Positions 2,474 through 25,386 of a stretch of 34,212 bases of DNA are shown piece after piece. The DNA is from a virus. The position numbers and the translations under genes were made by a program. The stretch lies in the IMG/VR virus record IMGVR_UViG_3300045988_081598; one strand, written 5' to 3'. The notes under the pieces are model-generated. The model was not told the DNA's origin. It searched no databases and saw only the letters and a program-made list of their open reading frames with translations. The first letter of the stretch is position 1. Every line of letters begins with the position of its first letter.

Positions 2474-3352
2474 TTATGCCTCCAAATTTTCAAAGCTTAT
2501 TTGTGCAGTATCTTCACCAACCCACCACTTAAATACATCTGTTCCTGTTTTCCAAGACGTTGGTTTTCCCATTGCTACTCTCCGTTCAACCATTTTGTCA
2601 AACGCTCGTATATATGCTTGCTTGTACTTCGGGTACCGTTGAAACTCTGCATGCTGATGTCTTGCCGCAATAGGGCAGCCGATGCAGCCTACACGATTAA
2701 ATCCACAGCTATATAGCGGATTAATTTCGCAGCCGTAGTGATGAAGAAAATCCCATACATCATTGTCATCCCAATCCACTATCGGGTTTATCATCGTTTT
2801 CTGCTTTGCATAGCAGTGTTCGACCAAACGTCTGGCATTGTCGTTATCATTGTTCAAGATGATACCGCCTTTTGGTGAAACATGATATTCAGCACCTATC
2901 TTGTCCGCAAATTTTTGCGTATGCTTTGGCTTGTTGAGTACCTGAACGACACCTGAATTGTTTTTACGATTAGAACTTTCAGCCCAGCGAACACCAGTTA
3001 TCAGCACCTTGCCGCTACCCGAACGTTCTTTGAGTTCATCACAACAGTATCTCAAAAGACGTGTTGGCGGCATTAGCTTTTTAACGATCAGGTTCCACAT
3101 TGTAATGTGATTACCGTCATTGTCATAGGCTTTTTCTATGCGAATGTCGGGCTGTGATTTTATGTATCTCATAGTTTCGGGTGCATCAACAGTTGTCAAA
3201 TTGTGTACCGCTTCAAATTTAACTCCTGCAAGCTGTGCTAATATCTTGATACAATCACTGTCTTTTCCACCACTGTAAGCAAGTCTATAGCCGTCAGCAG
3301 GCTCAAAAGCTTTCAAACGAGCTATCGCCTTTTGCTCCTTAAGCTTGTCCAT
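2474..3352 (-). CDS. Phosphoadenosine-phosphosulfate (PAPS) reductase / PP-loop ATP-pyrophosphatase family protein (DndC/IbrA-like)
   Basis: PP-loop motif LAYSGGKDSD and a C-terminal Cys cluster (YSCGFNRVGCIGCP). ORF track 2474-3382; the ATG at 3352 (MDKLKEQ) follows GAGAGGTGA. Confidence 0.8.
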   Translation of the reverse strand: MDKLKEQKAIARLKAFEPADGYRLAYSGGKDSDCIKILAQLAGVKFEAVHNLTTVDAPETMRYIKSQPDIRIEKAYDNDGNHITMWNLIVKKLMPPTRLLRYCCDELKERSGSGKVLITGVRWAESSNRKNNSGVVQVLNKPKHTQKFADKIGAEYHVSPKGGIILNNDNDNARRLVEHCYAKQKTMINPIVDWDDNDVWDFLHHYGCEINPLYSCGFNRVGCIGCPIAARHQHAEFQRYPKYKQAYIRAFDKMVERRVAMGKPTSWKTGTDVFKWWVGEDTAQISFENLEA

Positions 3353-3390
3353 TAGTTCACCTCTCATTTTCTGTCCGTTCAATCGGACTG

Positions 3391-3648
3391 TTAGCTGTTG
3401 ACATTTTCAGCGTTCTGAGTATAATTAATGTCAAGGACTTCATTGATAGCCGTTTCTATCTTGGTAGACTTTATCTCGCCTGTCATTATCTTATACAGAT
3501 TAGATGTGTCGAGATAAGTTTCAGGAAGAAGCTTCTTGACTTCCTCAATGAGCCACTTCTGTGTCTTGTTGAGTTTAACAAGACGTATCTTGACTTCCAC
3601 GCCGTACTCAGTCAGCGGTCTTTTGCGTTCACTAATAATTAACACCAC
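3391..3648 (-). CDS. Cro-like / early-operon small DNA-binding protein (first gene of the leftward operon)
   Basis: ORF track, 85 aa. Divergent from the XRE repressor across the operator region; KTQKWLIEEVKKLL...SNLYKIMTG is HTH-like. The start codon is uncertain: GTG-GTG-TTA-ATT-ATT follows AAAGGTGG with no in-frame ATG nearby. Confidence 0.55.
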   Translation of the reverse strand: MVLIISERKRPLTEYGVEVKIRLVKLNKTQKWLIEEVKKLLPETYLDTSNLYKIMTGEIKSTKIETAINEVLDINYTQNAENVNS

Positions 3649-3685
3649 CTTTGCATAATATTCACACTAATATGTGTTTTACATA

Positions 3686-3714
3686 TTGACAGTTACGTTT
3701 AAATGTAATATAAT
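3686..3714 (+). promoter_or_regulatory. Perfect consensus sigma-70-type promoter firing rightward (TTGACA-17 nt-TATAAT) towards the repressor
   Basis: TTGACA at 3686-3691, a 17-nt spacer, and TATAAT at 3709-3714, all read directly. Confidence 0.7.
3693..3708. promoter_or_regulatory. Operator-like site O0, TTACGTTTAAATGTAA (TTAC-N8-GTAA), inside the spacer of the rightward promoter
   Basis: Near-palindrome with 14 of 16 positions self-complementary. It has the same architecture as the five sites to its right. Confidence 0.55.
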
Positions 3715-3734
3715 ATATTTACCAGATACAAATA

Positions 3735-3750
3735 TTACGCTCTTGCGTAT
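3735..3750. promoter_or_regulatory. Operator-like site O1, TTACGCTCTTGCGTAT
   Basis: TACGC-TCTT-GCGTA inverted repeat, read directly. Confidence 0.55.
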
Positions 3751-3762
3751 TGCCTTGACTGT

Positions 3763-3791
3763 ATTATATTACACTTTTGCGTAATTGTCAA
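3763..3791 (-). promoter_or_regulatory. Perfect consensus promoter firing leftward (unit A) towards the Cro-like gene
   Basis: On the minus strand, TTGACA (3791-3786), a 17-nt spacer and TATAAT (3768-3763). The spacer is operator O2. Confidence 0.7.
3769..3784. promoter_or_regulatory. Operator-like site O2, TTACACTTTTGCGTAA, in the spacer of leftward promoter A
   Basis: TTAC-N8-GTAA pattern, read directly. Confidence 0.55.
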
Positions 3792-3798
3792 GTGAAAA

Positions 3799-3814
3799 TT
3801 ACTCTTTTGCGTAA
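3799..3814. promoter_or_regulatory. Operator-like site O3, TTACTCTTTTGCGTAA
   Basis: TTAC-N8-GTAA pattern. It also overlaps a weaker possible rightward promoter (TTACTC-16 nt-TATATT, -10 at 3821-3826). Confidence 0.5.
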
Positions 3815-3848
3815 TTTTGTTATATTACACAAATTATGAGGTGTAACT

Positions 3849-3935
3849 ATGTCAGAATTGTACAATAGAATTGAAAGCTTGTGCAAAAAGAGAAATATAA
3901 ATGTAACAGTAATGTGCAAAGAAGTTGTAAGATAA
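3849..3935 (+). pseudogene. Truncated paralogue of the XRE repressor N-terminus (28-codon mini-ORF MSELYNRIESLCKKRNINVTVMCKEVVR)
   Basis: It has the same RBS and first 16 nt as the 4046 repressor gene. It stops before the recognition helix of the HTH. Confidence 0.7.
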
Positions 3936-3939
3936 TTTA

Positions 3940-3955
3940 TTACGTTCTTCCGTAC
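3940..3955. promoter_or_regulatory. Operator-like site O4, TTACGTTCTTCCGTAC
   Basis: Positional homologue of O1 in unit B; degenerate half-site. Confidence 0.45.
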
Positions 3956-3968
3956 TGTCTATGTTTGT

Positions 3969-3997
3969 ATTATATTACATTTCTCCGTAAATGTCAA
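3969..3997 (-). promoter_or_regulatory. Second perfect consensus promoter firing leftward (unit B)
   Basis: On the minus strand, TTGACA (3997-3992), a 17-nt spacer and TATAAT (3974-3969). The spacer contains operator O5. Confidence 0.65.
3975..3990. promoter_or_regulatory. Operator-like site O5, TTACATTTCTCCGTAA, in the spacer of leftward promoter B
   Basis: TTAC-N8-GTAA pattern; positional homologue of O2. Confidence 0.5.
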
Positions 3998-4045: not shown

Positions 4046-4396
4046 ATGTCAGAATTGTACATAAGGATTGAAAATCTGTGCAAGGAACATAAAATTTCAA
4101 TAACTGCAATGTGTAAAGAAGCTATGGTGAGCAGAGGTTCTATTACAGACTTAAAGCAAGGTAGAAGCAAAACTCTTTCTTCTGAGGCTATTTCAAAGAT
4201 AGCGAAGCTTTTTGATGTTTCAACAGACTATCTTATGACAGGCAATGAAGCTGAGCCGCAAAGCTCAGATATGGACGATAACATCAAGTTCGCCCTATGG
4301 GGAACAGCCGACGTTGACGACGATGTGCTTGAGGACGTGAAGCATTACGCTCAGATCGCACGTCAGATGAGAGAGGATAAGAAAAATAAAGAATAG
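4046..4396 (+). CDS. XRE-family HTH repressor (CI/ImmR-like)
   Basis: ORF track, 116 aa. A classic HTH_3 pattern is present (ISITAMCKEAMVSRGSITDLKQGRSKTLSSEAISKIAKLFDVSTDYL). RBS GAGGTG. Confidence 0.85.
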   Translation: MSELYIRIENLCKEHKISITAMCKEAMVSRGSITDLKQGRSKTLSSEAISKIAKLFDVSTDYLMTGNEAEPQSSDMDDNIKFALWGTADVDDDVLEDVKHYAQIARQMREDKKNKE

Positions 4397-4407
4397 AGGC
4401 GGTATAT

Positions 4408-4821
4408 ATGGATAGTGCTGAACTGCGCAGTTTTGCGGAGGACAGGGACATTATAGTGATTGACGGAAAATTAAGAAATGAACAAAAGTCCATATCCATT
4501 AGTGATAGAGGGCAATGTGCGATAGTGGTAGACCCTAAGAAGATCACCACAAGTGCAGAAGAAACTGTTATAATGGCTCACGAGCTGGGGCATTGTGAAA
4601 CAGGTGCATTTTATAACGAAAGAACGCTTGAGCTTCGTTCACGAATGGAGTTTCGTGCGGATAAATGGGCAATAAAAAAGCTCGTCACAGAGGACGAGCT
4701 GATAGAAGCATTTGAAAATGGTATCCTTGAAATATGGGAGCTTGCCGAGTTCTTCGGTGTCACCGAAGATTTTATGGTCAAGGTTTGTGAATTGTATGGA
4801 TATTATAACAGGGTGATATAA
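4408..4821 (+). CDS. ImmA/IrrE-family zinc metalloprotease (repressor-cleaving anti-repressor type)
   Basis: HExxH motif in VIMAHELGHCETG. It lies immediately downstream of the XRE repressor, as in ImmR/ImmA pairs. Confidence 0.8.
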   Translation: MDSAELRSFAEDRDIIVIDGKLRNEQKSISISDRGQCAIVVDPKKITTSAEETVIMAHELGHCETGAFYNERTLELRSRMEFRADKWAIKKLVTEDELIEAFENGILEIWELAEFFGVTEDFMVKVCELYGYYNRVI

Positions 4822-4825
4822 AAAA

Positions 4826-4858
4826 GTCCCCGTCAGTACCGCAAATACTGACAGGGAC
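4826..4858. terminator. Hairpin T1 (GTCCCCGTCAGTA-CCGCAAA-TACTGACAGGGAC). The A-tract lies on the + upstream side, so it is a canonical intrinsic terminator only for minus-strand transcripts
   Basis: 13-bp stem read directly. The reverse complement is followed by TTTTTT. It is a paralogue of hairpin T2. Confidence 0.6.
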
Positions 4859-4983
4859 AGCACACAGAATTTTCTCCTGCATGGTTACAAATACATTATA
4901 TCACCAATTTAAGACAATGTAAATGATTTCATAAATTGTTTACAAATGTCGGAAATTATTGAATTACAAGGAGGAAGTTTTTT

Positions 4984-5613
4984 ATGAAGAAGTTTATAGC
5001 TGGAGTAATTGCATTATCGCTCGTTTGCGGAATGTCCGCTTGTGGAAGTGGTGACAGCTCATCTTCAAGTGAAAACACTACTGCAACAACTACCACTACT
5101 ACAACATCAGAGGAAACCACAACGACGACAACCACAGCGGAGACTACGACTACGACGGAAGAAACGACAACAACGACGGAAAAGCCTACCACAACAACGA
5201 CTACTACGACCACTAAAGCTACTACCACCACTACAACAACTACTGCTGAAGAACCCAAAGATCAAGTTTTGTTTGATAATAACGGAATTAAGATTACCTT
5301 TACTGGTATGGATTATACAAGCAGTATATTTGGTCCAGAAATCAAAGTACTGATTGAAAATAGCACGAGCACAAATTATACAGTTCAGGTTCGTGATTTT
5401 TCTGCGAACGGCTTTATGGTTGATACAACAATGTCTGCGGATGTCAATGCAGGTAAAAAAGCAAATGATTCAATAGGAATTAATAGTTGGTCATTAGAGG
5501 AAAATTCTATATCCGAAGACGATATGCAAACTTTTGAATTCAGTTTTCATATCTTTAATTCCGATGATTGGTCTGACGGCTTTGATACTGAAACTATAAT
5601 TATACAGCTTTAA
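4984..5613 (+). CDS. Lipoprotein with a Thr-rich linker and a C-terminal ~120-aa globular domain (moron; candidate superinfection-exclusion protein)
   Basis: Signal peptide plus lipobox (MKKFIAGVIALSLVCGMSAC, Cys20). RBS AGGAGG. Located between the immunity genes and the integrase. Confidence 0.8.
   Translation: MKKFIAGVIALSLVCGMSACGSGDSSSSSENTTATTTTTTTSEETTTTTTTAETTTTTEETTTTTEKPTTTTTTTTTKATTTTTTTTAEEPKDQVLFDNNGIKITFTGMDYTSSIFGPEIKVLIENSTSTNYTVQVRDFSANGFMVDTTMSADVNAGKKANDSIGINSWSLEENSISEDDMQTFEFSFHIFNSDDWSDGFDTETIIIQL
5077..5244 (+). repeat. Low-complexity ACN-codon tract encoding the Thr-rich linker (43 of 56 residues are Thr by hand count)
   Basis: Read directly. Its antisense strand creates the spurious poly-Val ORF at 4956-5258. 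Confidence 0.9.
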
Positions 5614-5624
5614 AATAAAAAAAT

Positions 5625-5651
5625 CCCCTGAGTGCCGCAAACACTCAGAGG
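5625..5651. terminator. Hairpin T2 (CCCCTGAGTG-CCGCAAA-CACTCAGAGG), a paralogue of T1 with the A-tract on the + upstream side
   Basis: 10-bp stem with one mismatch and the same CCGCAAA loop as T1. The reverse complement is followed by TTTTTTT. Confidence 0.6.
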
Positions 5652-5709
5652 ACAGGTGAACTGATATTGACAGTATCAGCTCGATTCAAATTCACACCAA
5701 TAGACCAAT

Positions 5710-5735
5710 AAAGGGCGAATTTTGCCCTTTTATTG
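5710..5735 (+). terminator. Intrinsic terminator-like hairpin (AAAGGGC-GAATTTT-GCCCTTT + TATT) between the lipoprotein gene and int
   Basis: Read directly. Confidence 0.5.
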
Positions 5736-5777
5736 TAGCACACTTTCGAGTAAGTGTCAAGAATAGGAGGAATATTT

Positions 5778-6929
5778 ATGCCGATCTACAAAATGACGGA
5801 CAAGAACGGAAAGAACATCAGAAAAGACGGTCTGCAAAAATATCGTGTGCGTATCAATTATACGGACAGTTTCGGAAAGTCTCATCAGATAGACCGTGTG
5901 GCGTTCGGTGCAGAGACGGCTAAGCAGCTTGAACTCCAGCTTACACAAAAGCTCAATGCTAAAGAGATAGCTCCAAAAATGACTATCGGACAGCTATTCA
6001 CGGAGTACATCACCGCCAAGCGTTCAGAGGTCCGTGAAACGTCATTGGACAAGTCCTTAAGAATACTGAAAAAGAACGTCCTGCCGGCCTTTGAAAGCGT
6101 TAGGATAGATAATCTGAACGTACCAATGGTGCAGAAATGGAAGCAGGAGCTGTCAGAACAGGGATTGGCTATCGTCACACGAAAGAACATTTACGGCGAG
6201 TTTCGTGCAATGATGAACTATGCTGTGAAAATGGAATACATTCCGAAAAACCCCGTTATAACCGCAGGCAACTTCAAAGCGCCCCTTGAAGCCAAGAAAG
6301 AAATGCTTTTCTACACGCCTGACGAGTTCAAGAAATACATATCGGCAGCTAAGAATTATGCTCAGGAAGCAGAGGACGGCGGCTCAATGTACGAATGGAA
6401 CTACTATGTATTTTTCAACATAGCATTTTACATGGGTATGCGAAAAGGCGAGATATACGCTCTGCAATGGACGGATATAAAAGACGGCTACATATCTATC
6501 ACCAAGAGCATTGCTCAGAAGCTCAAAGGCGGTGATCGTATCACGCCGCCAAAGAACAAGCCAAGCATACGGACGATACAGATACCAGAGCCGTTAAGAA
6601 CAGTGCTGTCAGAACATTACGAACGCTGTAAGAAAGCAGTGCCAAAGTTCAGTGATGATATGTACATCTGCGGCGGTGAGCGTCCCATCCGTGACACGTC
6701 ACTTGAAAAGACCAACAAGAAGTTTGCAGACTTGGCAGGTGTCAAACGTATCCGTATTCATGACTTCCGTCACAGCCACGCTTCCCTGCTCGCCAATGAG
6801 GGCATAAACATTCAGGAGATAGCAAGACGTCTTGGACATTCCAACATATCAATGACATGGAACACCTACTCGCACCTCTACCCGCGAGAGGAAGAACGTG
6901 CGGTGAAGATATTGAACACAATCGTGTAA
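5778..6929 (+). CDS. int: Tyrosine site-specific integrase
   Basis: Catalytic signature R (MRKGEIYAL), HxxR (IHDFRHSHASLL) and H...Y (GHSNISMTWNTYSHLY). The ATG at 5778 follows AGGAGG; the ORF track starts at 5754. Confidence 0.9.
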   Translation: MPIYKMTDKNGKNIRKDGLQKYRVRINYTDSFGKSHQIDRVAFGAETAKQLELQLTQKLNAKEIAPKMTIGQLFTEYITAKRSEVRETSLDKSLRILKKNVLPAFESVRIDNLNVPMVQKWKQELSEQGLAIVTRKNIYGEFRAMMNYAVKMEYIPKNPVITAGNFKAPLEAKKEMLFYTPDEFKKYISAAKNYAQEAEDGGSMYEWNYYVFFNIAFYMGMRKGEIYALQWTDIKDGYISITKSIAQKLKGGDRITPPKNKPSIRTIQIPEPLRTVLSEHYERCKKAVPKFSDDMYICGGERPIRDTSLEKTNKKFADLAGVKRIRIHDFRHSHASLLANEGINIQEIARRLGHSNISMTWNTYSHLYPREEERAVKILNTIV

Positions 6930-19438: not shown

Positions 19439-20860
19439 TCAGTAGCTTATCTTTTGCTTTTTCTTTTCTTTAGCGTTCGCACAGCTCCAATGTGCAAGCA
19501 CCACCGACTCTAACAGCGAAATGTCAGCACCCTCCATAATAGAGCTGTAACCAAAACCTCCGCCTGAGCCTATGGCTCTGTGTTCGCAATTTGAAACAGC
19601 CTGCTCAAGTGCAGGTTGTTCTGCGTGGCATATCTTATCAGCAAACAGACTTTGCTCAAACTGAGCTGACGCCTGCACCACCTCAGCAACCTTTGGCAGC
19701 ACAGCCTTGCACTTAACTCCTGCGTCTTTCATATCACTTTCAAGCACAGCCTGTCCGTTTGCACCGTCTATGGTCACTTGCCTTGCGTGAGGATTTCTGA
19801 GATATGAGATTATCCAGCCGTTCCCCTCTCGCACAGGGCGGCAGTCGATAGCTTCAACGAATATTTTGCCGTCAGAAGTTTTAACAGCAACTGCAAGAGA
19901 AACATTTGCCGTATATCTTGCATACTTAACACCGAAGAACAGTTCAGGCGTGCCTGAAAGTTTTGGTGCTGTATCAAGCTGATAGTTATGCCATTCCTCC
20001 CGGCTTATAGCGGACTTCTGATTGTATCTTAACCACAGACCTAAACGCTGAATATTATCGTCTGTCTGGTCTTTGCCAAGCTCTGAACGTATCTTACGCT
20101 CGGTCAGTATCGTACCGAGTGAGGGATTTGTTTCATACCAAAGTTCAGGGTCATGTGCGTCAGCCATTTCAGGTATGCTCCACTCCGCCCAGCCGCTGTC
20201 AACGTTAGTTCCACTCAGAGTGTCACGGCGGTACTGATAGAACACAGTTCCAGATGATACCGCAGTAGGAGGAGTGCCGCACATCAGTGTCTGAGGGTTT
20301 GCAGAATCGGTAACAACGTATTTCAATGCACTTTCTTGGTCAGCCGTGTACTCCTGAGCCTCGTCTATAATGAGCAGGTCATAGCCCTCACCAAGTCCGC
20401 CTTTTGATGAACGTGTACGGAAGTTGATAAGACCTCCGTCATTATCTTTGAGCCACTCGATACGTTCAAGGCCAAACTGTTTTGTGCTCTTGAAATCCTC
20501 TTTTTCGGTATATCCTGCCTTTGCAAGACGTTCAATGACCTTTTCCCATGCGTTGTGAGAGGTGGTCGTTCTGTGTGCCGTATAAAGAACACGCTCTCCG
20601 TGGATAAGTCCCCAGAGAGCACGCATTATAAGTATTTCAGATTTTCCGTTACGTCTTGGCACGCTGTAGCCGTATTTCATATGCGTCCACAATCCCTCGT
20701 CATTGGTCGCCATTATGTCATATAGCTGTATTTCCTGCCATTCCTGAGCAGTTCTGCCTGTGCTGTTATATAACTCTACAGCCTCGTTGCCCTTAGTCTG
20801 CTCATAAGGCAGGACAAGGGCTGTGGTGGGGGTCTGCCTGCCGACTCTCTTATCCTCAAT
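19439..20860 (-). CDS. terL: Terminase large subunit; the likely start is ATT at 20860 (474 aa) rather than the ATG at 20713
   Basis: Walker A is VPRRNGKSE. The frame is open for 49 codons upstream of the track ATG with no in-frame ATG, GTG or TTG. AAGGAGG lies 9 nt upstream of the ATT, and there is no SD before the ATG. Confidence 0.8.
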   Translation of the reverse strand: MEDKRVGRQTPTTALVLPYEQTKGNEAVELYNSTGRTAQEWQEIQLYDIMATNDEGLWTHMKYGYSVPRRNGKSEILIMRALWGLIHGERVLYTAHRTTTSHNAWEKVIERLAKAGYTEKEDFKSTKQFGLERIEWLKDNDGGLINFRTRSSKGGLGEGYDLLIIDEAQEYTADQESALKYVVTDSANPQTLMCGTPPTAVSSGTVFYQYRRDTLSGTNVDSGWAEWSIPEMADAHDPELWYETNPSLGTILTERKIRSELGKDQTDDNIQRLGLWLRYNQKSAISREEWHNYQLDTAPKLSGTPELFFGVKYARYTANVSLAVAVKTSDGKIFVEAIDCRPVREGNGWIISYLRNPHARQVTIDGANGQAVLESDMKDAGVKCKAVLPKVAEVVQASAQFEQSLFADKICHAEQPALEQAVSNCEHRAIGSGGGFGYSSIMEGADISLLESVVLAHWSCANAKEKKKQKISY

Positions 20861-20908: not shown

Positions 20909-20931
20909 TAGTTCCGATGTTTGAACAACTA

Positions 20932-21174
20932 TTATCCTCTAATGACCTTGTTCTCAAATTTCTTGTATGCATCAAGATACCATTCTTTCTTATCACCGTT
21001 ATATGTCAACTCGTAATACATACCGTCAAAGAGAGTACTTGAAAGCAAGTATTTCCAGTTCTGCAATGCCTTGCATTTCCATACTGTATAAACTTCAAAA
21101 TCAGGCTTTATATCTGATTTATCAAGATGTTCTCCAATGTAATCTTTCACAATTTCTATTGCTTTTTCGTCCAT
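20932..21174 (-). CDS. Hypothetical 80-aa protein (bracketed by terminator-like hairpins)
   Basis: ORF track; RBS AAAGGA. Confidence 0.55.
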   Translation of the reverse strand: MDEKAIEIVKDYIGEHLDKSDIKPDFEVYTVWKCKALQNWKYLLSSTLFDGMYYELTYNGDKKEWYLDAYKKFENKVIRG

Positions 21175-21202
21175 AATATCCGTCCTTTCTGATTTTGGGT
21201 AT

Positions 21203-21232
21203 AAAAATACCGCCTCGCCGTAGCGGAGCGGT
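21203..21232 (-). terminator. Intrinsic terminator inside the late gene block
   Basis: The minus-strand RNA reads ACCGCUCCGC-UACG-GCGAGGCGGU followed by AUUUUUAU (9 pairs, 1 mismatch, UNCG-type loop). Confidence 0.6.
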
Positions 21233-21238
21233 TATTAA

Positions 21239-21466
21239 CTAATATTTGAGTTCAGGAGGTAACTGCTTTTCTCGAATGTCTGTCTCTGATACTTCTATAC
21301 GAGAAATATGAAAAGCTTTTTTACAGTCATTGCACCAAACATCTCCATATCCTTTACCACTGCTTATTTCAAGCAATCTGTAATCTGTATTTTCTTGTCC
21401 GCAATATGGGCATTTGCCTGCCTTATGGAGCTGCTTTATACTCGCTAGATTGTCAAGCCATTTCAT
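21239..21466 (-). CDS. Small zinc-ribbon protein (CPYCG...CNDC); candidate immunity partner of the MuF C-terminal domain
   Basis: ORF track 21239-21508. The ATG at 21466 (MKWLDNL) follows AGAGGTGA and lies just after the MuF stop. Confidence 0.55.
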   Translation of the reverse strand: MKWLDNLASIKQLHKAGKCPYCGQENTDYRLLEISSGKGYGDVWCNDCKKAFHISRIEVSETDIREKQLPPELKY

Positions 21467-21470
21467 ACTA

Positions 21471-22661
21471 TCACCTCTTTGTAACCAAGCTATAAAATAA
21501 TCGTTCAAACCTATAAGCTTGTTTTTCCATTAAATCTAAGTTTTGCTGAGCATATGCTTTGCCATGTTTCTTTAGCTGTAAAACGTGGCACTTTTCATGC
21601 AATATGGTTTTTACTAATTCCTCTTCAGAAGAAAATGCACTTGGGAACAAGTCTATTCTTCCTATGTTATTATAGTCTGTTGAGCCATAAAAAGGGAGTG
21701 CAAGGAGTTTTTCAGAACGCTGAATCTTAAAGGTTATTCCGCTAGTATCAATAGAATATTTTCTACATATGTTCAGAATTTCTCTTTTCTGCATTGGCAC
21801 TGTCAACGTTGAGAACGCACCTATGTTTTGCTCTTTTCGTTCAAGGTTTCTTCCTAATTTCATTATACCACTTTTTTTCGATTTGTCAATCCTGCTAAGC
21901 ACTTCTTTTTCCTTAGCTCTTGCCTGCTCAGGTGTGAGCCTTGTGACCTGCTTGCGTGTTTCGATCTCTTTGCCGTTTTGAACGTCTGAGTAGCTTATTT
22001 GGTCATATGTGCCTGCCTTTTCATTGACGTAGGTTATCTCACAGGTGCAGCGCTTATGCCGCCGCCACACGTCCTTTGGAACATCAGGATAGACGTACTT
22101 TCCTGCAAGCTTTGAACACCACGCACAGCATTTGCTGTGGTCTGAGCGGATAACGTACACCCTAAGTCCTGCTTTACTGCGAAAATCAGCATTTGTTTTG
22201 ACATAATCGGTAAAAATCGAGCCGTTTATGTTCTCAACTGACGCAGTGAACTCGCTGAGCGACGTCTTGTCGGTAAGTTCCTTTTGAGCCGTCACTTTTG
22301 CAAGATTTTCTATCCTCTCAGAGGGAAAATCTGCTCTTTGCGGCTTTATGCCTATGCCTGCCGCCTTATCAAGCTGTTTTTGGATATTCTCAGCCACAGA
22401 GTTTATAAGTTCGTAATTATCACCGAATATATCACCGAGTATCTCAGCAATAAGCTGTTCATCTGTAAAAGCCTTTGGACTTTCGCTTATGCTTTTCTCA
22501 AAGACTTTTTTCAGCACAGCTCCTGTTGCCTGTGCGAAGTCATCAACATCACTAAGATTTGCGTTACCGCTTTCAAGCCTTTTTATAATGCTCTGCAAAT
22601 GTTTGTCGCTTTTTGAAAGCTTGACAAGTTCGCTTTTTATTTTGTCTGAAAGTGCGCTCAT
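21471..22661 (-). CDS. MuF / SPP1 gp7-like head morphogenesis protein with an extra C-terminal HExxH domain
   Basis: MuF-type core (SDHSKCCAWCSKLAGKYVY...RRHKRCTCEITY), a Lys/Glu-rich linker, and then ~110 aa ending ...ILHEKCHVLQLKKHG... Confidence 0.75.
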   Translation of the reverse strand: MSALSDKIKSELVKLSKSDKHLQSIIKRLESGNANLSDVDDFAQATGAVLKKVFEKSISESPKAFTDEQLIAEILGDIFGDNYELINSVAENIQKQLDKAAGIGIKPQRADFPSERIENLAKVTAQKELTDKTSLSEFTASVENINGSIFTDYVKTNADFRSKAGLRVYVIRSDHSKCCAWCSKLAGKYVYPDVPKDVWRRHKRCTCEITYVNEKAGTYDQISYSDVQNGKEIETRKQVTRLTPEQARAKEKEVLSRIDKSKKSGIMKLGRNLERKEQNIGAFSTLTVPMQKREILNICRKYSIDTSGITFKIQRSEKLLALPFYGSTDYNNIGRIDLFPSAFSSEEELVKTILHEKCHVLQLKKHGKAYAQQNLDLMEKQAYRFERLFYSLVTKR

Positions 22662-23884
22662 TTGCCGTCACTCTCCATACCTGTGAGAGCCTTTATGTTT
22701 CTTGCACCAAGATAGTCAGGCACAGCCTGGTTTATCTTCAAGATAGCGTCGCCCACACCCGAGAGTGCCGCAGCGTCAGGCTCGAAGATAGGCAGCCATG
22801 CGACTTTTGTATCTCTGAACGCATCTCTTTGATATGCGTATCTGTCACGGATACAAACGGCAAGATAGCCCACATTGAGCAGACCTGTTCCGAACGTCCT
22901 CTGCGCCTTGCGTGCCGTTAATCGTAGGTTTTCATGACCTGCCTTGATAGCCTCTGCGCTGGAGGGGTTTTCGGTGGCAAAGCCCAAGTCATCAAGGGTC
23001 AGTCCTGTTTCTCCTGCGAACAGGCTTGCAAGTGTTCTCAGCTGTTCAGTATATGGCGTCATTGATTGCTGTTGAAACTGTCCTACAATGGGGTGATCGC
23101 CGTCGCCGTCTTTCGTGAAATTTAGAAAAGAGGATATCGTAGCAAGCCGGTTATTGAACTCTGCGTCCTCAGATAATCCAAGCACATATTTTTGAGGGAA
23201 GCTGTAAAATTCAGCCGACACCTCAGAGCGTTTTATAGTTCTGAGAGCTGTCTGTGTATAGGCAATGCAGGCTCTTGAAATACGGCTGTGACCGAACGGA
23301 CGCTTTGCGTCAGGACGATATATTATCGGCACGAGCAGTGCATATGGTGCAGCGTTTGGTATACGCTGAACAAGCACGCCATGGGAGTATATTTCCGTCA
23401 TGCCTGCCATGAAATAAGCCTCTGTCTTTACAACACCCATGCTGTCACGCTCAAGCACTGCATAGCCCTCGGTAAGCAGATTTGTCACAGGGTCAATGAT
23501 ACCGGTGGCATTTGAGCCGTCAATTACCTGCAGGCGAGGATAGCCGTTATCTTCTCGGATATAGACGAAAGAACACGCTGAGATAAGAGCCGAAAGCACC
23601 GCAGAGTCAATAAGTATATCCTGATTGTTTGACAAGAATATTTCGCTCAGATCAAATTCATCATTTTGAAATTCATCGAACTGCAAGCGGTCAGCAAGGC
23701 TATCGACTGCTTTCGCACACCAGCCAACAGTTTCCTTTAGCCCCTTGAATTTTTCGGGAGCAAGGCTCGAAAAGTCCTGTGCGTTATTTTTCATTTCGTA
23801 GTACTTATATCTCAATAGCACTCGTGTTTGTTTATCGGCAAGTCTGCGTCGCAGATAGTCAATTCCGTATATTTCGTTTGTCAT
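22658..23884 (-). CDS. Portal protein (SPP1 gp6-like)
   Basis: 408 aa, directly upstream of MuF. RBS AGGAG. Confidence 0.8.
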   Translation of the reverse strand: MTNEIYGIDYLRRRLADKQTRVLLRYKYYEMKNNAQDFSSLAPEKFKGLKETVGWCAKAVDSLADRLQFDEFQNDEFDLSEIFLSNNQDILIDSAVLSALISACSFVYIREDNGYPRLQVIDGSNATGIIDPVTNLLTEGYAVLERDSMGVVKTEAYFMAGMTEIYSHGVLVQRIPNAAPYALLVPIIYRPDAKRPFGHSRISRACIAYTQTALRTIKRSEVSAEFYSFPQKYVLGLSEDAEFNNRLATISSFLNFTKDGDGDHPIVGQFQQQSMTPYTEQLRTLASLFAGETGLTLDDLGFATENPSSAEAIKAGHENLRLTARKAQRTFGTGLLNVGYLAVCIRDRYAYQRDAFRDTKVAWLPIFEPDAAALSGVGDAILKINQAVPDYLGARNIKALTGMESDGK

Positions 23885-24005: not shown

Positions 24006-24341
24006 TTAAATCGACTTCCAATCAAAAGTTTGCGGTAAAACACGGTTGGATACGGCTTCTACCTTTTGGTCAAACACCTGTTTTTCCACCAATTTGTCAG
24101 ATTTCTGACGATTGCAACACCAATGAGCAAGCTGCAGGTTTTCAAGGGCTGAGGGGTGACCGCCTTTTGCTATGGGTATGATATGATCTATGCAAGCTGA
24201 CAGTGGGTGTGGATACTTCAAGGAAAAATCAACAGGTTTTCCACAGATGCCGCAAACTGTTTGGGTAGCGTAGATTTTCTTCTTGTTGATACGGAACTGC
24301 TGTTGATGTGAACCGCTTCGGTCTGGTCTTGGTATAGGCAT
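24006..24341 (-). CDS. HNH endonuclease
   Basis: CGICGKPVD...IDHIIPIAKGGHP...NLQLAHWCCNRQK. Confidence 0.85.
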   Translation of the reverse strand: MPIPRPDRSGSHQQQFRINKKKIYATQTVCGICGKPVDFSLKYPHPLSACIDHIIPIAKGGHPSALENLQLAHWCCNRQKSDKLVEKQVFDQKVEAVSNRVLPQTFDWKSI

Positions 24342-24389: not shown

Positions 24390-24719
24390 TTATTTCTTTC
24401 CAAGCTTTATGAGCTTGTCGTTTGCTGTTGTCTTACCTCGCAATACGAGTCCATCTTTACCGATCGTGCCGTGATGAGTCTTCGTTCTTTGATAAATATC
24501 ATTTTTATCTGCTGATTGCATTCTGCCGCCATGAACTTTTTGAACAGTGGTTGCTCTTGAGTATTCAAACGAGATAGAACCGTCACCCTGCTTTTTAAAA
24601 ACAGGTTTTGAATATCCATTTTTTTTAGCAACATTTTCGAAACGTTTCATAACTGTTCGTTGCTCTGACGTTGTACCACTAGCAACACCTATTCCGCTCG
24701 AACTTCCTCTACCACCCAT
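24390..24719 (-). CDS. Hypothetical basic protein (MGGRGSSSG... N-terminus)
   Basis: ORF track, 109 aa. RBS AAGGAG. Confidence 0.6.
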   Translation of the reverse strand: MGGRGSSSGIGVASGTTSEQRTVMKRFENVAKKNGYSKPVFKKQGDGSISFEYSRATTVQKVHGGRMQSADKNDIYQRTKTHHGTIGKDGLVLRGKTTANDKLIKLGKK

Positions 24720-25386
24720 TTATCCTGGCTCCTTTCCATTTATCCTGAAACGCTTTTATGTGTACAATATTCCCCTTGCATTCGTCTGGAACATTGCCGT
24801 AAAACAATATAGTTTCCGGTCTAAGTTTTTCGCACATAACCTCATAACCTGATATGAATGCGGCTTTTGCAGCATTGTCATTCTGTGTTCCTATAGATGA
24901 TACTGCCACCGTGCCACCCTTAGGTTCTCCGTCAAAACACCATTTAAATGACTTTTCGTCGCTCCAACATATAGTTGGAATAACTTCAATTCCGTTATCT
25001 TCCCAAAACGCACCGAGCCAATGCTTGCGGTAATGATTGTATATCTGCATTGCTGTCGGAAAATCAGCATATAGTGAAAAATCAGGAGTAAGGACACATC
25101 TGAAACCTTTGAGAATATCAAGATAGGCGGTCGGATTGTTCCAAAGCCTGAGAAATTGATAATCATCAAGAAAGAAATGTACTCCCTTATTCTGCCTGTT
25201 CTTTGTCGTCTTTGCATAATTAAAGCCAATAAGTTCAGGAAAATCTGTAATCTTTGAGCCTGTCAGCTGAGGTATATCATATTTACCTGCACCAGCATAA
25301 AAGCCGTGCTGTAAATTTTCATAGCGTTGTTTATTATTCAATTCAGCACCGCCTTTTTTTGTTTTCCAACGCAAAAGGCACCCCAT
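24709..25386 (-). CDS. DUF4417-like protein (start uncertain; a TTG at 25341 is possible)
   Basis: The pattern GVHFFLDDYQF...LTPDFSLYADFP...IYNHYRKHWLGAFWEDNGIEVIPTICW matches DUF4417 as I recall it. The track ATG at 25386 sits in the loop of a terminator hairpin. Confidence 0.6.
   Translation of the reverse strand: MGCLLRWKTKKGGAELNNKQRYENLQHGFYAGAGKYDIPQLTGSKITDFPELIGFNYAKTTKNRQNKGVHFFLDDYQFLRLWNNPTAYLDILKGFRCVLTPDFSLYADFPTAMQIYNHYRKHWLGAFWEDNGIEVIPTICWSDEKSFKWCFDGEPKGGTVAVSSIGTQNDNAAKAAFISGYEVMCEKLRPETILFYGNVPDECKGNIVHIKAFQDKWKGARINGW

Follow-up and report, generated by a model that had tools for sequence, protein, structure and literature searches.

MuF toxins are abundant in human-gut phages, and their biological role is a standing question. 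The locus described here, from the viral record IMGVR_UViG_3300045988_081598 of IMG/VR, raises that question in a specific form: what does an enzyme-like domain do at the end of a phage head protein, and how would a cell that carries the phage as a prophage be protected from it? The window, by which we mean the whole 34,212-nucleotide (nt) stretch that was analyzed, encodes on its minus strand a 396-amino-acid (aa) protein in which a MuF-type minor head protein is joined to a putative zinc metallopeptidase, followed by a 75-aa zinc-ribbon gene; a first-pass annotation, made from the letters of the sequence, had proposed that the two form a MuF toxin/immunity pair. We conclude that the locus is probably a MuF-type polymorphic toxin-immunity cassette in a temperate phage of gut Clostridia, and we describe an addition that the first-pass annotation had missed, a consensus promoter inside the linker of the fusion protein.

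Metallopeptidase domains are found in 20% of MuF toxins (PMC5576092). The characterized MuF toxins are Apk2 and Bxa, which are neutralized by the products of neighboring small open reading frames (ORFs); the protection of lysogens is not explained there (PMC10083569, PMC11699363). The parts of the locus under study are as follows.

21471..22661, minus strand: 396-aa fusion of a MuF-type minor head protein, a disordered linker and a C-terminal zinc metallopeptidase (predicted)
22017..22661, minus strand: N-terminal MuF-type domain, aa 1-215 (PHROG, hhalign, AlphaFold2, Foldseek)
21852..22016, minus strand: Lys/Glu-rich linker, aa 216-270, its 3' end being the recombination breakpoint
21862..21889, minus strand: consensus sigma-A/sigma-70 promoter (predicted), TTGACA-N16-TGgTATAAT, 12/12 plus extended -10
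21474..21851, minus strand: 126-aa minimal gluzincin module, aa 271-396, putative toxin domain
21585..21599, minus strand: HEKCH codons (H355-E356-x-x-H359), metal-binding/catalytic motif, read from the sequence and invariant in alignments
21239..21466, minus strand: 75-aa zinc-ribbon gene (C19/C22/C45/C48), putative immunity protein
21201..21232, minus strand: intrinsic terminator, GC-rich hairpin plus T-run, closing the cassette
21177..21889, minus strand: mobile cassette of promoter, toxin-domain coding sequence, immunity gene, terminator and junction

Both ORFs, the strong ribosome-binding site and the terminator are present as the first-pass annotation gave them, and so are the motifs CCAWCSKLAGKYVY...RRHKRCTCEITY and ILHEKCHVLQ in the 396-aa protein. 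The feature is not a chance ORF, because the exact 396-aa protein is present on 119 contigs and its C-terminal module is found in 330 representative clusters (204 of them at E-values up to 1e-10).

A metallopeptidase-like module shared among toxin classes

The module always occupies the extreme C-terminus of its host protein, over host lengths from 130 to 1856 aa. The extra C-terminal domain noticed in the first reading of the sequence is a conserved unit that starts near residue 271 and not at 285. The residues F343, T352, H355, E356, H359, Q362 and E386 do not vary across 37 diverse members, which gives a signature HExxHxxQ...E of the gluzincin type, and E379 is kept in at least 90% of them. 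The AlphaFold2 (AF2) model of the module, with a predicted local distance difference test score (pLDDT) of 93 and a predicted template-modeling score of 0.85, has three strands, a helix that carries HExxH (residues 76-96 of the model) and a Glu-bearing helix (105-125); placement of HExxH in a non-catalytic helix had been named at the outset as a reason to drop the idea, and in the model the motif lies in the active-site helix of a zincin. Among the predicted viral structures of BFVD the module matches SprT-like, IrrE-like and M48 proteins with probability 1.0 and template-modeling (TM) scores of 0.55-0.65. Foldseek against the PDB returned no convincing relative (all at E of at least 0.4, the best 0.43), with zinc peptidases predominating among the top-ranked, weak matches, and the best solved-structure match by sequence profile was the minigluzincin proabylysin (PDB 4jiu, E 0.056). 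By its predicted fold and its gluzincin residues, the module is a zincin.

The first-pass annotation could assign this domain to no named toxin family, and that is borne out: its nearest families in Pfam and NCBIfam, all below threshold, are SprT-like and Tox-MPTase4. SprT-like (PF10263) scores 19.9 bits on the window's module against a cutoff of 25.6, and neither Tox-MPTase4 (PF15640) nor eCIS_core (PF13699) is detected for it at E up to 1. At that same limit the 37 members match SprT-like (29/37; best E 5.5e-4), DUF3920 (21/37), DUF6782 (10/37), Tox-MPTase4 (6/37; best E 2.9e-5), MPTase-PolyVal (6/37) and eCIS_core (3/37; best E 7.5e-4). In our view the module forms a sister family, so far without a name, within the zincin clan, apparently near the Wss1-like Tox-MPTase and PVC-metallopeptidase domains. 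A search of 50,697 records of deposited phages returned a single match, to an unannotated contig, and none to a cultured phage.

What the module is attached to is informative about its role. Among 66 full-length host proteins, 32 carry Phage_Mu_F, 15 carry Phage_min_cap2 and 3 are VG15-like; one has RHS repeats with DUF6531 (P0257, 1856 aa) and one has LXG with PT-TG (P0253). Two further hosts are RHS proteins: P0255, and P0266, whose RHS-associated core scores 61.7 bits (cutoff 32.5). (An ankyrin protein in the representative search, P0238, was a spurious repeat match and was ignored.) By these domain assignments the module is common to MuF, RHS and LXG (type VII secretion) toxins; domain sharing between polymorphic-toxin families is a hallmark by which such toxins are defined (PMC5576092).

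A zinc-ribbon gene downstream of the module

The ATG of the zinc-ribbon gene is at 21466, 4 nt past the TGA of the 396-aa ORF, and its stop is at 21239; it has its own Shine-Dalgarno sequence, AGAGGTGA. An 89-aa TTG-initiated version of the ORF extends too far at its N-terminus, since more than 40 distinct homologues begin at MKW. The gene is strictly linked to the module: a zinc-ribbon homologue lies directly downstream in 67 of 67 loci, on MuF1, MuF2, VG15-like, RHS and LXG scaffolds. The 62 phage or prophage loci, all of which have the adjacent gene (mostly overlapping the stop by 4 nt), cover module identities from 100% to 42% and host proteins of 136 to 870 aa; the gene is also present in L001 and L003, two loci discussed below. 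The homologue likewise follows the module in an actinobacterial RHS locus (P0266, 65% G+C; profile E 6e-19) and in the LXG toxin locus (33% G+C; E 1e-14). Module and partner co-diverge (r = 0.54), the partner evolving faster, with a mean identity of 46% vs 60% for the module.

The family to which the partner belongs is small and unnamed, and consists of stand-alone proteins that are never fused, whether in the 67 loci or among 23 database homologues. Since only a covalently attached domain would leave the producing cell, and the partner is separately encoded and strictly linked, the zinc-ribbon protein is best read as a putative immunity protein; its genetic linkage is that of a downstream immunity gene. 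The proposal of a MuF toxin/immunity pair thus gains support both from the occurrence of the module on RHS and LXG toxins and from the presence of the partner in every one of the 67 loci.

Exchange of C-termini among close relatives

Beyond a common linker, seven unrelated C-termini are found on proteins that match the query at 77-96% identity over their N-terminal ~270 residues. Besides the domain of the window these are an ATLF-like HEYGH peptidase (P0072), a DUF6883-like domain (P0074), a domain with the motif HNHP..S..D (P0090), a HEYAE domain (P0095), and two C-termini without a match (P0069 and P0073). Downstream of each lies a small ORF (43-80 aa) that differs from cassette to cassette. 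Conserved, collinear C-termini in all MuF homologues would have counted against the first-pass proposal; they are not collinear, and each of the seven has its own downstream gene. In 75 IMG/VR loci, drawn from this lineage and a ~42%-identical one, the C-termini fall into eight clusters. Comparison of the predicted proteins thus indicates that the C-terminus is polymorphic among close relatives.

Several of the C-termini in the sibling and related lineages (P0090, P0095, P0069 and P0073; L166, L167 and L172) have no Pfam match, and the P0090 motif is reminiscent of JAB/MPN peptidases; the unmatched ones, each with a private small ORF, are candidates for further new toxin domains.

The breakpoints can be placed on the DNA. 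Siblings are ~96% identical down to ~21860 (edge 21858-21882), cannot be aligned across 21858..21233, share a 56-nt junction at 21232..21177, diverge again at 21176..20925 and are ~97% identical from 20924 onward. The cassette of the window is also found on N-termini only ~40% identical to its own (P0082, L001), and in L001 the flanks are ~73% identical to the window, yet 21889..21177 (713 bp) is 99.6% identical; the cassette has therefore been transferred recently between lineages.

A consensus promoter in the linker

At the 5' edge of the exchanged segment, and in frame within codons 258-267 of the fusion (RIDKSKKSGI), the linker holds the promoter listed above, from which transcription would start at about 21855. 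The window contains 5 perfect consensus promoters vs 0.02 expected, the other four all lying at 3398..3997. Eight sibling loci, which between them carry the seven cassettes, all agree (8/8) in both hexamers, in the TG and in the spacing of 16 nt, while the residues encoded by the spacer vary (SKKS, SRKN, RGGS, SGKS, SAKS, TAES). The 75 IMG/VR loci give the same picture whatever their cassette, with 74 scoring 12/12 and one 11/12. A score of 11/12 or better is reached by 41% of 39 diverse loci in which the HExxH module sits on a MuF1 or MuF2 host, compared with 0.5% of background windows, and the offset of the match is fixed, the -35 hexamer lying about 38 nt before the module; a 17-nt spacer, where it occurs, puts the -35 into a different reading frame, in which it encodes L-T.

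Codon usage gave a further test. In 27 distinct loci that encode [GD]-I-[IM] at the position of the -10 element, every Gly is encoded by GGT (23/23, background 26%), every Ile by ATA (27/27, background 37%) and every Asp by GAT (4/4). Since the hexamers and their spacing are invariant, the spacer residues vary and synonymous codons are fixed, selection acts on the DNA and not on the peptide. We take the linker promoter to be real as an element conserved at the DNA level, and together with the terminator it would give the cassette a promoter and a terminator of its own, as in a moron.

At the other end, the stem of the terminator differs between sibling loci with its pairing kept through compensatory changes, and each small ORF in the siblings is preceded by a strong Shine-Dalgarno sequence, with a hairpin and T-run behind it. 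The first ORF with a Shine-Dalgarno sequence after the predicted start of the linker transcript is the immunity gene. We also looked in the window for a stand-alone toxin domain on this transcript: the first in-frame ATG, M290, lacks a Shine-Dalgarno sequence, and a free domain beginning there would lose conserved residues, which makes it unlikely. Other cassettes differ in this respect. In L008 (around 4800-4850) an in-frame ATG lies just past the linker promoter, after the Shine-Dalgarno-like GAAGGAAA, and in L006 (around 4800-4830) one lies almost at the predicted transcript start; cassettes of the L008/L006 type might also make a free toxin domain from the internal transcript.

In the papers on MuF toxins that were searched we found no description of a promoter inside the linker or of a promoter-to-terminator cassette, and as far as these searches show the design is undescribed.

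The MuF-type N-terminal domain

The "recognizable MuF core" of the first-pass annotation holds at the level of profile-profile comparison and fold and does not hold at the level of curated models. PHROG 2494, "minor head protein", matches residues 5-261 (E 7e-50). In hhalign the N-terminal family profile matches a MuF1 profile, built from 57 Phage_Mu_F-type sequences, with a probability of 78.5% (E 1.7e-5), and the signature C..C..l.GK...H..C.C is in register in that alignment; in the window it corresponds to the CxxC...HxxCxC knuckle C179/C182/H202/C205/C207. The AF2 model has pLDDT above 90 over residues 1-165, and Foldseek matches it with probability 1.0 to phage proteins annotated as "MuF-like", "minor capsid" and "head morphogenesis", among them known MuF-enzyme fusions. 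The sole curated-model match is VG15 (PF25310), below threshold, and an iterative local search did not join the N-terminal family to MuF1 or MuF2 at the level of hidden Markov models. With moderate confidence, we assign the domain to the MuF superfamily as a divergent member, on the strength of its profile and its modeled fold; we take its nearest relatives to be the VG15-like group, and it may correspond to one of Jamet's added MuF families.

The closest fold match (BFVD A0A8S5PIE7) is a protein of 469 aa annotated "Matrixin", with 27% identity over the Foldseek alignment, which suggests another metalloprotease-type cassette on the same MuF lineage. The Lys/Glu-rich linker was correctly noted in the first reading of the sequence, and AF2 predicts it to be disordered, with pLDDT below 50 at residues 216-244 and 254-262.

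Weighing the interpretation

The toxin-immunity interpretation is supported in that each refutation test named in the first-pass annotation that could be run, on collinearity and on structure, favored it. Several observations weigh against it or narrow it. The linker promoter is missing from a subgroup of MuF hosts with the linker 'GLGKVG..PKPKRKE' and from the RHS and LXG loci, and the terminator hairpin alone is energetically unexceptional (z = -0.89). The N-terminal domain is matched by none of Pfam PF04233, Pfam PF06152 and NCBIfam TIGR01641, and hhalign against a six-sequence Phage_min_cap2 (MuF2) alignment gave a probability of 2%; the module, as said, falls below threshold in Pfam and NCBIfam alike. 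Because of common ancestry among the loci, the counts given above overstate how many independent events there were. Finally, toxin and immunity genes appear not to be paired strictly one-to-one. The toxin fusion of L003 is identical to that of L001 (P0082), whose module is the same as the window's except for one residue in the linker just upstream; the L003 zinc-ribbon gene (3081-3308) is nevertheless only 65% identical to that at 21239..21466, despite the identical toxin domain, and matches the variant that is paired with an 83%-identical module in L054. This suggests either that the toxin gene and the immunity gene have been separated by recombination or that specificity is relaxed.

The injected domain might instead be a pro-phage effector and not an antibacterial toxin, cleaving a defense or regulatory protein or biasing the lysis-lysogeny decision, with the zinc-ribbon protein as its inhibitor, i.e. 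a superinfection-exclusion factor against phages that carry the same cassette. We consider this unlikely, though it deserves to be kept in view, since it overlaps with the toxin-immunity interpretation in molecular mechanism and differs from it in biological role. Low-toxicity peptidase MuF toxins have been proposed to guide lysogeny decisions or to counter defenses (PMC5576092), the adjacent variable slot holds anti-defense-type genes in siblings (Tad2-like, PF11195), and an inhibitor made constitutively from the linker promoter fits exclusion as well as it fits immunity; what tells against it is that the same module and partner occur on RHS and LXG toxins, whose established role is in interbacterial antagonism, and that at least seven unrelated domains at one site resemble an interchangeable toxin repertoire. 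That the protease is a morphogenetic one, a MuF-fused enzyme for the prohead or scaffold like those in the capsid-maturation-protease fusions of actinophages, strikes us as very improbable. Such fusions are among the fold matches of the N-terminal domain, and no separate prohead protease gene was identified between the portal and capsid genes; siblings whose portal, terminase, scaffold and capsid genes are ~96-97% identical nonetheless carry non-protease or unrelated C-termini, and the domain is therefore dispensable for assembly. Outside phages, moreover, RHS and LXG toxins terminate in the same module.

A zinc ribbon at the C-terminus (Pfam Zn_ribbon_SprT) is a feature of many SprT proteins, and the 75-aa protein could accordingly be read as such a ribbon split off, a subunit of the protease that perhaps binds nucleic acid or substrate. 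The nearest Pfam family of the module is indeed SprT-like (29/37 members, weakly), and strict co-occurrence would also be expected of an obligate subunit. We think this improbable, given that the ribbon is unfused in all 67 loci and 23 database homologues, that the SprT zinc-ribbon model does not match it at E up to 1, that it evolves faster than the enzyme, and that sibling cassettes with unrelated domains all have a small private ORF at that place, which is the pattern of immunity genes; in RHS, LXG and MuF delivery, furthermore, only the attached domain would be exported, and a separate subunit would stay behind. A comparably small chance is left for the linker sequence being no promoter, and being kept either as a peptide (a processing or pre-toxin motif) or as a homology "handle" for recombination. 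It does sit exactly at the recombination breakpoint, where polymorphic toxins often have pre-toxin motifs such as VENN, PT-TG and DPxGL (PMC3482391). A conserved peptide is hard to reconcile with invariant hexamers and 16-nt spacing around variable spacer residues, with fixed GGT and ATA codons, and with a -35 whose reading frame shifts (to L-T) where the spacer is 17 nt; the match is a full consensus with an extended -10 TG, and the other perfect matches in the window are confined to the switch region. A role as a recombination handle, for its part, is compatible with the sequence also being a promoter.

Proposed mechanism

On the toxin-immunity interpretation, the N-terminal domain would act in the manner of SPP1 gp7 and bring a small number of fusion molecules to the portal within the capsid, to be ejected along with the DNA. 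The disordered linker would tether the 126-aa zinc endopeptidase, which is predicted to be of the SprT/Wss1/Tox-MPTase type. Because the same module tips RHS and LXG/type VII toxins, its most likely action would be to cleave an intracellular bacterial protein and so harm the recipient cell; the zinc-ribbon protein would probably be the cognate immunity protein that binds and blocks the protease.

The linker promoter would start transcription just upstream of the toxin-domain coding sequence, and the terminator would close the unit. In lytic growth the late transcript would yield toxin fusion and immunity protein together, protecting the producer; in a lysogen the linker promoter is predicted to yield the immunity protein alone from an otherwise repressed prophage. 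Lysogens would then be immune to a virion toxin of the same cassette type, and non-lysogens would not. Late transcription could supply the terminase and capsid genes only by getting past the terminator of the cassette, through antitermination or re-initiation. Cassettes would be exchanged between phages by recombination, with the conserved promoter/linker as the site at one end and the terminator junction at the other. The further claim, that the linker has evolved as a constitutive promoter and that MuF loci discriminate lysogen from non-lysogen or phage from phage, we offer tentatively, as something we would put a little short of an even chance.

Relation to known systems

In nuclease colicin operons, the immunity gene has a constitutive promoter inside the toxin gene. 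Morons of temperate phages are, as Hendrix and colleagues reportedly described them, promoter-gene-terminator units inserted in late operons. The cassette resembles these in being an accessory unit with its own promoter and terminator in a late structural operon, with predicted expression from the prophage, and differs in that its 5' part is translationally fused to an essential-type structural gene, the unit starting inside an ORF. In Vibrio cholerae, promoters inside type VI secretion system (T6SS) effector genes give the immunity genes a dual expression profile (PMC3857813). The likeness to the window lies in a promoter within toxin coding sequence that would supply immunity protein when the toxin promoter is off; unlike the T6SS promoters, that of the window is predicted to act in a phage structural gene, in a disordered linker, at a recombination point and across unrelated cassettes.

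The pair belongs to the known class of MuF polymorphic toxins (PMC3482391, PMC5576092), with which it shares the position after the portal gene, a MuF-type N-terminus, a variable C-terminus shared with other toxins, a small downstream ORF and a temperate host phage that infects a Firmicute; it departs from them in an N-terminus that curated MuF1 and MuF2 models do not detect and in toxin and immunity families, the zincin and its zinc-ribbon partner, that are unnamed in Pfam and NCBIfam. With Tox-MPTase1-5 and the PVC-metallopeptidase (DUF4157/eCIS_core) the module has in common a length of ~120 aa, a zincin fold, HExxH with a downstream Glu, and an occurrence on RHS toxins, and the PVC-metallopeptidase signature is literally HExxHxxQ-E, as in the window; it differs in that the window's module matches neither, and its relatives match only below threshold (6/37 and 3/37). 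In Zhang et al. 2012 (PMC3482391), Tox-MPTase1-5 are listed with neither an immunity family nor an association with MuF. SprT/Wss1/Spartan, the minigluzincins, IrrE/ImmA (M78) and M48 are the best sequence and fold neighbors, with the same three strands, HExxH helix and Glu-bearing helix; the differences are the sub-threshold scores, the TM of 0.55-0.65, and a context of toxin delivery instead of repair or regulation.

Genome context

The window is a complete temperate phage genome of ~34 kb, from a phage of gut Clostridia. An unannotated human-fecal contig, MT835767, is 98% identical across the region, and homologous loci are embedded in large bacterial contigs. Lysogeny genes occupy 4046-6929 on the plus strand, and holin, CHAP endolysin and tail genes are also annotated. 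The features around the locus are as follows.

20932..21174, minus strand: second variable slot, here an 80-aa DUF6275 gene (Pfam E 1e-28)
19439..20713, minus strand: terminase-large-like gene, head module
22658..23884, minus strand: portal gene, 408 aa, weak SPP1_portal match (E 0.003)
24006..24341, minus strand: HNH gene, head module
4046..4396, plus strand: Cro/C1-type helix-turn-helix repressor, by annotation
4408..4821, plus strand: ImmA-like M78 peptidase, by annotation
5754..6929, plus strand: integrase, by annotation

At 22658-22661 the stop of the portal gene and the beginning of the MuF-type gene overlap, so that the latter lies directly after the portal gene; the counterpart of the portal gene in related loci is a PF05133 SPP1_portal. 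Further downstream of the 396-aa gene, the minus-strand head module has scaffold and HK97-type capsid genes. The order of the head operon is unusual, with the portal and MuF-type genes upstream of the terminase large subunit, and the terminator at 21201..21232 stands in mid operon, with the MuF-type gene before it and the genes for terminase, scaffold and capsid after it.

In siblings the second slot holds a Tad2-like gene (PF11195, the anti-Thoeris family), a 59-aa coiled-coil gene (L003, L010, L012) or nothing; its coordinates are 5480-5734 in L001, 5485-5739 in L004 and 5762-6082 in L008. The interval between the MuF-type and terminase genes looks like a hotspot for accessory or anti-defense genes. 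The four other perfect promoters, TTGACA-N16/17-TATAAT, are clustered at 3398..3997 on both strands, and the spacers of three of them share an operator-like inverted repeat, TTACG-N7-TGTAAT; this region, which adjoins the operon of the repressor, the ImmA-like peptidase and the integrase, is presumably the lysis-lysogeny switch. Elsewhere on the minus strand are a PAPS-reductase-like gene at 2474..3382 (PF01507, E 3e-17) and a DUF4417 gene at 24709..25386 (E 1e-61).

Implications

The locus gives an unnamed family of putative zinc-protease toxins, together with its zinc-ribbon partner, that spans capsids, RHS and type VII toxins, and it is a very clean case of natural cassette exchange with mapped breakpoints. 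If confirmed, it would also offer a rule for finding such loci in metagenomes from sequence: a linker promoter, a small ORF with its own ribosome-binding site, and a terminator. If the linker promoter is indeed constitutive, every swapped cassette would arrive with expression of its antidote in the prophage state already in place. If MuF loci do discriminate between lysogens and other cells, this would supply the mechanism that the model of a "phage-delivered weapon" has been missing and would account for cassette diversification; the idea of phage particles as toxin-delivering weapons to which kin lysogens are immune would, if the regulatory design is confirmed, become a testable mechanism.

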